IMG/VR virus record: IMGVR_UViG_2737471866_000003
Source: a virus
Lineage: Duplodnaviria > Heunggongvirae > Uroviricota > Caudoviricetes
Reading direction: 5' to 3' (one strand)
DNA: 23,513 bases
This document shows, piece by piece, positions 22,542-22,578 of the stretch (positions are counted from its first letter, which is position 1; each line of letters starts with the position of its first letter). A program made the translations under genes and the position numbers. The notes beneath the pieces were generated by a model that was not told the origin of the DNA, did no database searches, and worked only from the letters and a program-made list of their open reading frames with translations.

Positions 22542-22578
22542 TTATAGAAGTCCTTCACTGTATGAAGGACTTCTATAA
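22542..22578. repeat. Perfect 16 bp inverted repeat with 5 nt loop (TTATAGAAGTCCTTCA-CTGTA-TGAAGGACTTCTATAA), preceded by a T7 run on the plus strand
   Basis: Seen directly in the sequence, 75 bp from the IS3 terminus. Function unknown. Confidence 0.6.

Follow-up and report, generated by a model that had tools for sequence, protein, structure and literature searches.

A perfect 37-nt palindrome in the late region of a lambda-like prophage is a real element under selection that was previously unannotated. It is the conserved 3′-flanking stem-loop of a truncated late gene of the PHROG 1935 family and most likely an ordinary hairpin in the RNA of the late transcript. The stretch of 23,513 nucleotides analysed here (hereafter, the window) encompasses this late region, whose genes are encoded on the minus strand, and the features that bear on the palindrome are collected in Table 1. 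The element folds into a stable stem-loop, is conserved among related prophages, shows covariation between its arms, lies directly after a stop codon, is almost never followed by a U-tract, and is independent of both cos and IS3.

Table 1. Features of the window in and around the palindrome
Feature	Position	Strand	Basis or remark
Large terminase gene	19405-21507	-	Followed by the portal gene and the rest of the late genes
Small terminase subunit gene, DUF1441 type	21507-22001	-	Sets the direction of late transcription and packaging
cosQ-containing block, GGGTCCT, predicted cosN nick and cohesive end	22176-22219	-	Match to lambda; end of the phage cdtI genome
Direct repeats of 16 nt, CCGGTTTTTT(T)ATTT(T)C, at 22390-22405 and 22521-22536	22390-22536	.	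Bound a 131-bp segment
Small hairpin GGCGATCTTCGCC	22482-22494	+	Upstream of the plus-strand terminator-like stem; fold
Terminator-like stem 22495-22502/22519-22526 with T7 run 22525-22531	22495-22531	+	Fold; conserved in relatives
Stem-loop with a perfect 16-bp stem and a 5-nt loop	22542-22578	-	Sequence, RNA fold, and covariation across 28 variants
Remnant of a PHROG 1935-family late gene, last 11 codons plus TAA	22585-22620	-	C-terminus match to relatives
ATT, left copy of the 3-bp IS3 target-site duplication	22650-22652	.	Filled site (L001) versus empty site (L002)
IS3 right end and orfB, cut by the end of the window	22653-23513	-	No functional link to the stem-loop

Structure of the palindrome

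The two arms of the palindrome, TTATAGAAGTCCTTCA (22542-22557) and TGAAGGACTTCTATAA (22563-22578), are 100% complementary and are separated by 5 nt. No other perfect, short-spacer inverted repeat of at least 12 nt exists in the 23.5-kb window, where the arm TTATAGAAGTCCTTCA itself occurs a single time. Given the window's base composition, perfect 16-bp inverted repeats with loops of 3-10 nt would be expected only ~4 × 10⁻⁵ times per window, and this expectation, together with the element's uniqueness there, bears out an earlier note on this DNA in which the palindrome was held to be non-random. Folded as RNA, the minus strand of the hairpin reaches -25.7 kcal/mol (z = -8.9) and the plus strand -24.2 kcal/mol (z = -6.9), and none of the shuffled sequences produced as good a fold. 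In the minus-strand RNA, the stem is further extended by a G.U pair (22579/22541) and by an A-U pair that closes the loop. G-C pairs account for 5 of the 16 pairs in the stem. A search of Rfam with permissive E-values over positions 21900-22760 returned chance-level matches only and no family, and nothing specific was found in the literature on a hairpin upstream of cos in lambdoid phages.

Selection on base pairing

Hairpin sequences were collected from 70 IMG/VR contigs by means of a conserved 20-mer, from 80 contigs by means of the protein, and from annotated genomes, and this sampling produced 28 distinct variants. Under a 16-pair model, 90.6% of the stem cells in these variants form pairs, versus 38-59% when the partners are slid along the alignment. 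Compensatory double changes were found at five of the 16 pairs, including three within the window's own clade, and the observed covariation score was not reached by any of 500 column shuffles; a smaller set of 15 variants gave the same picture. For example, the window and its relative EC43 differ at four stem positions, which together make up two exact compensatory pairs (U-A to C-G). In another example, a single-arm change from G to T creates a mismatch in one variant (L034) and is compensated in another (L044) by a change from C to A.

Loop length ranges from 3 to 7 nt across the variants, and mismatches or wobble pairs occur in some of them. Compensatory changes, a flexible loop, and tolerated mismatches together point to intra-strand pairing, and not to a fixed site for a dimeric protein. 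The pattern of substitution fits a hairpin that has been kept by selection for base pairing within one strand. Moreover, since the whole window clade carries both the truncated gene and compensatory changes, selection on the stem has outlasted loss of the upstream ORF.

The late gene upstream of the stem-loop

In related lambdoid prophages, the PHROG 1935 gene is the last gene after the lysis cassette, and it has no known function. A minus-strand gene in this location, ending just before the hairpin, was found in STEC409, SE11, ETEC H10407, cdtI, and phi458. The stop codon of the intact gene precedes the hairpin by 5-9 nt in cdtI, STEC409, SE11, H10407, SK6988, and STEC307, and in L161 the end of a different gene occupies the same spacing. 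The version of the gene in cdtI belongs to another PHROG and possesses a Pfam ORF11CD3 domain, with the C-terminus in common. In the window, the remnant (read from 22620 to 22585) encodes MELPEGAKITK, and its TAA stop (22587-22585) lies 6 nt before the hairpin. This reading matches the family C-terminus, ...AGMELPEGAVVTE, and likewise that of L004, L084, and L082, in which the gene is intact and ends in ...CPVFAGMELPEGAVVTE.

Relatives that lack the IS3 insertion, such as A2 and EC43, encode a DUF1398 gene followed by bor on the plus strand. Because this moron follows the remnant in relatives with an empty IS3 site, the late gene has apparently been replaced by the DUF1398-bor moron; for the window, which ends inside IS3, the replacement is read from those relatives.

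The gene and hairpin form a unit that is followed by ~12 unrelated downstream contexts. In several of these, the Shine-Dalgarno sequence and ATG of the next gene lie within ~20 nt of the hairpin, so the element's position is an intercistronic one. Two prophages have a ParB/Srx-domain gene downstream of the hairpin and no cos right-end module there. Judging from lambdoid gene order, late transcription would be expected to run across the hairpin region on the minus strand. That strand also yields the more stable RNA fold in 20 of 24 variants, and a U.G pair is the commonest state at one stem position (21 of the 28 variants). When counted from the alignment and pair table, ~32 stem cells pair on the minus strand only (G.U), versus ~21 on the plus strand only (A.C or C.A on the minus), and a single ancestral U.G pair accounts for most of those confined to the minus strand. 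The asymmetry between G.U and A.C, together with fold stability, leans toward the minus strand as the acting strand, not decisively, and the positional argument for that strand is stronger than the thermodynamic one: the hairpin invariably comes directly after the stop codon of a gene on the minus strand and accompanies that gene into the ~12 downstream contexts.

Distribution

The segment spanning positions 22420-22652 was found in 25 complete genomes of E. coli at an identity of at least 91%, while a more sensitive search detected parts of it in 145 of 5426 E. coli genomes, at 1-3 places in each. Every copy that was inspected lies in a prophage late region. The earlier note would have counted as refuted had the palindrome proved to belong to a known repeated element, such as one of the REP or IS type, with no phage-specific conservation; an element with 1-3 places per genome and a single copy in the window does not behave as one.

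REP/BIME units are typically present as many dispersed intergenic copies per genome, and some IS elements target such units. The hairpin resembles them in being a short extragenic palindrome in E. coli; however, it lacks the REP consensus, is limited to 1-3 places per genome, and resides in prophage late regions where inspected.

Three exact matches to the 20-mer, the only contigs that a scan of genome contigs returned, from Stakelama, Legionella, and Sphingomonas, were considered as a possible sign of wider spread and set aside. Their flanks are unrelated to the phage module, and ~1 exact match would be expected by chance in the 596 Gb searched; consequently, they provide no evidence of spread beyond E. 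coli. The palindrome represents an unannotated cis-element, supported by covariation, in the late operon of lambdoid prophages that form a common group in E. coli, including those of the cdtI, Stx2k, and ETEC H10407 types.

A possible role in the late transcript

With regard to function, there is about an even chance that the palindrome forms an RNA stem-loop between cistrons of the late transcript and acts post-transcriptionally, either as an exonuclease barrier or as a processing site. By this reading, the hairpin would act as RNA within the minus-strand, polycistronic late transcript. Without a U-tract it would not stop RNA polymerase, and it could instead block 3′-to-5′ exonucleases or constitute a processing site for a double-strand-specific enzyme, thereby setting the stability of neighbouring mRNA segments. 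In the window, truncation of the gene would have left the hairpin stranded between the moron side, which is interrupted by IS3, and the ~350-bp right-end module that leads to cosQ and cosN. Loss of the upstream ORF counts against a benefit as a 3′ stabiliser in the window itself.

Stem-loops in mRNA that block 3′-to-5′ exonucleases or that are cleaved by RNase III occur between the genes of phage T7 and in sib, downstream of int, in lambda. The hairpin is similar to these stabilisers and RNase III sites in placing a stable 10-17-bp stem only a few nucleotides downstream of a stop codon in a polycistronic phage transcript, with no U-tract and with compensatory changes that preserve the stem. 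It differs from the RNase III sites of T7 in being a single, uninterrupted helix that lacks their internal-loop architecture, and neither its sequence nor Rfam revealed a relationship to known elements of this sort. If the proposed role in RNA is correct, the hairpin would provide a simple example of segmental control of mRNA stability in a Q-antiterminated late transcript.

The terminator question

A second explanation, unlikely but with several observations behind it, is that the palindrome works on the plus strand as a weak intrinsic terminator or insulator, which would back up the neighbouring CCGG...CCGG-T7 terminator and shield the promoter region of DUF1398-bor. The weaker hairpin and T7 run that the earlier note described just before the palindrome on the plus strand are indeed present: GACCGGTT at 22495-22502 pairs with GACCGGTT at 22519-22526 and runs into the T7 run at 22525-22531, 10 nt before position 22542. 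This plus-strand, terminator-like stem faces the palindrome from its other side. The stem of the window clade is also perfect on both strands. In EC43, moreover, the palindrome itself is flagged as terminator-like on the plus strand (16 pairs; tail CTCTTCTT (CTCTTCTTAC)), and a promoter-like site, TTGAGA-16-GACAAT, is located ~45 nt downstream of it, before DUF1398.

In the window, however, a terminator scan of both strands over positions 21900-22700 found no terminator-like site, in keeping with the earlier view that in neither direction does the palindrome form a canonical terminator. Neither of its tails is T-rich; the plus tail, CGCTTCTT (4 T in 8), fails the scan by falling one T short of the criterion that EC43 meets, and the minus tail is TCTTAGAAAT. 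Plus tails in all other clades (GCCTGTTA...) are not rich in T, and in the same 20 of 24 variants folding is weaker on the plus strand. Furthermore, the hairpin long predates the moron, as it occurs in ~12 contexts with an intact minus-strand gene and no plus-strand unit.

In the direction of the late gene, a T-rich tail follows the hairpin in L088 and L100, and a U-tract is present in only one of ~12 downstream contexts. In L088 (positions 909-943; IMG/VR contig 3300029042_000245), GTTTTTGGTTTTTGGCTTTT comes after the hairpin, and the site is scored as terminator-like in the same direction as the gene. The hairpin is evidently convertible to a canonical terminator by its flank, as seen in L088, and a terminator function is plausible in some contexts. 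In common with intrinsic terminators, it lies directly after a gene and combines a stable stem with a short loop, and it passes the scan in L088 and on the plus strand of EC43. It departs from them in its lack of a T/U tract, both here and in almost all other contexts, and in having only 5 G-C pairs out of 16.

A joint between modules

It is also conceivable, if quite unlikely, that the palindrome functions chiefly as a linker at a module junction, where homologous recombination would join lysis-side and packaging-side modules and any role in RNA would be secondary or absent. On either side of the hairpin, homology breaks off precisely at its base. Downstream, the ~12 unrelated contexts start immediately behind ...TAAT(G), and at least three unrelated upstream contexts (the L010 type, which has its own terminator; Stx2k; and L161) stop before ATTA. 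The hairpin also coincides with a sharply defined mosaic joint, with the lysis and moron modules on one side and the packaging modules on the other. Stem-loop cassettes that mediate modular shuffling have been documented in T4-type phages (PMC2839356). Selection for a linker would favour sequence identity, however, whereas compensatory change and G.U wobble were seen instead; there is also one copy per prophage, no associated recombinase, and no conserved core beyond the ATTA and TAAT ends.

A more active version of this idea, in which the hairpin is a module-exchange junction used by recombination or by a structure-specific enzyme, much like PeSL cassettes or integron attC, is improbable. Such a junction would explain why breakpoints occur exactly at the hairpin base across ~12 downstream contexts and at least four upstream ones, and the PeSL cassettes of T4-type phages are likewise conserved stem-loops that coincide exactly with the points where related phages have exchanged modules. 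PeSLs, though, are present in multiple copies per genome, contain a strong promoter, and terminate transcription effectively (PMC2839356), whereas the hairpin is single-copy per prophage, has neither promoter nor U-tract, and is selected for pairing rather than identity.

Relation to cos

The earlier note had further proposed two roles at the level of DNA, namely a protein-binding operator and a cosQ-like element for termination of packaging. That the palindrome is such a site, whether an operator bound by a dimeric regulator or an accessory element in packaging, is now highly improbable, even though it forms a perfect dyad in the window and is located in non-coding DNA at the chromosome's right end. 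The cos region is a sequence of approximately 200 bp, of which the 7-bp cosQ subsite is highly conserved (PMC4669245). In the window, the minus-strand sequence TACGGGTCC-TTCCGGTG (22219-22203) matches the cosQ-containing block of lambda at 48470-48487, and the cosQ motif GGGTCCT (22216-22210) is located 22 nt upstream of the predicted nick. A 12-nt cohesive end, GGGCGGCAGCGG (22187-22176), follows 15 nt after the cosQ block, and its first seven bases are those of the lambda cohesive end. Moreover, the predicted cosN nick (22188|22187) coincides exactly with the end of the phage cdtI genome as deposited.

With a bona fide cosQ at 22216-22210, the cosQ role is already filled. On the phage chromosome, both cosQ and the palindrome are right-end features upstream of cosN; however, the palindrome lies ~355 bp from the cosN nick, contains no cosQ motif, and is not restricted to this cos module, being found as well in prophages that lack it downstream. 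At the right end of lambda, only the cosQ block is held in common with the region, and no homologous or comparable hairpin was found there.

The proposal of an operator fares no better, given the compensatory stem changes, the 3-7 nt spacing, and the ~12 unrelated neighbouring modules. Arm sequence varies along with spacing, mismatches and wobbles are tolerated, and no regulator gene is consistently adjacent. A promoter-like site beside the hairpin was seen only in the DUF1398 clade.

Relatives combine this right-end module, hairpin through cosQ, with at least five different types of cohesive-end right half or of cosB and terminase. Strain A2, for example, has a small terminase of the lambda Nu1 type after the right-end module, versus the DUF1441 type in the window. 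The variety of right halves joined to this module indicates that cos is itself a mosaic joint.

The IS3 insertion

The IS3 end (TGATCCTACCC...) begins at position 22653, which places the insertion point at 22652|22653, 74 nt from the palindrome. Comparison of a filled site (L001) with an empty one (L002) revealed an IS3 of 1258 bp with a duplication of ATT. The junction is identical in all filled copies (the window, L001, L031, and L048) and the site is empty in 14 of 18 close relatives that carry the hairpin, which together indicate a single, inherited insertion of IS3. The suggestion, also made earlier, that the palindrome is a structured target that attracted IS3 has a negligible chance of being right: proximity (74 bp) and the fact that IS1397, a member of the IS3 family, targets palindromic units are all that favour it, against one junction with an ATT duplication in every filled copy, the 14 of 18 relatives with an empty site, and an insertion that lies outside the palindrome. 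For purposes of annotation, then, the palindrome lies outside cos and has no relation to IS3.

In the window lineage (22644-22653), IS3 is inserted one base after the GACAAT hexamer, ~95 nt upstream of the DUF1398 start codon; the promoter-like site of EC43 is found at positions 4204-4231 of L003. The insertion may uncouple the DUF1398-bor moron from its promoter-like site.

The right-end module

Several smaller features occur between the stem-loop and cos. The small hairpin upstream of the plus-strand terminator-like stem reads GGCGGTCTTCGCC instead of GGCGATCTTCGCC in most relatives, with a G.U pair that is kept on the plus strand only. The 131-bp segment bounded by direct repeats, whose plus strand bears both this small hairpin and the terminator-like stem with its T7 run, is absent from phages cdtI and phi458 and present in 126 of 5426 E. 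coli genomes. A search of this segment yielded no Rfam match, no convincing promoter, and no conserved ORF, and it could be a plus-strand small RNA or a terminator cassette.

Several ORFs in this module were considered as genes and rejected. A minus-strand ORF at 22373-22558 starts inside the palindrome, lacks a Shine-Dalgarno sequence, and loses its frame in cdtI and phi458. The 131-bp insert contains a plus-strand ORF of 36 aa and a minus-strand ORF of 32 aa, both of which likewise lack a Shine-Dalgarno sequence and have frames that are lost in the same two phages. The predicted cosN nick falls within a 90-aa ORF on the plus strand (22145-22417). This ORF, whose frame cdtI and phi458 do not conserve, is probably no true gene, although comparable ORFs are listed as hypothetical proteins in the records of some phages. 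Finally, a stretch of 53 nt (22346-22398) is 83% identical to DNA that several PhiR phages carry under the annotation "endopeptidase Rz", and it may be a relic of a lysis cassette within the non-coding right-end module.
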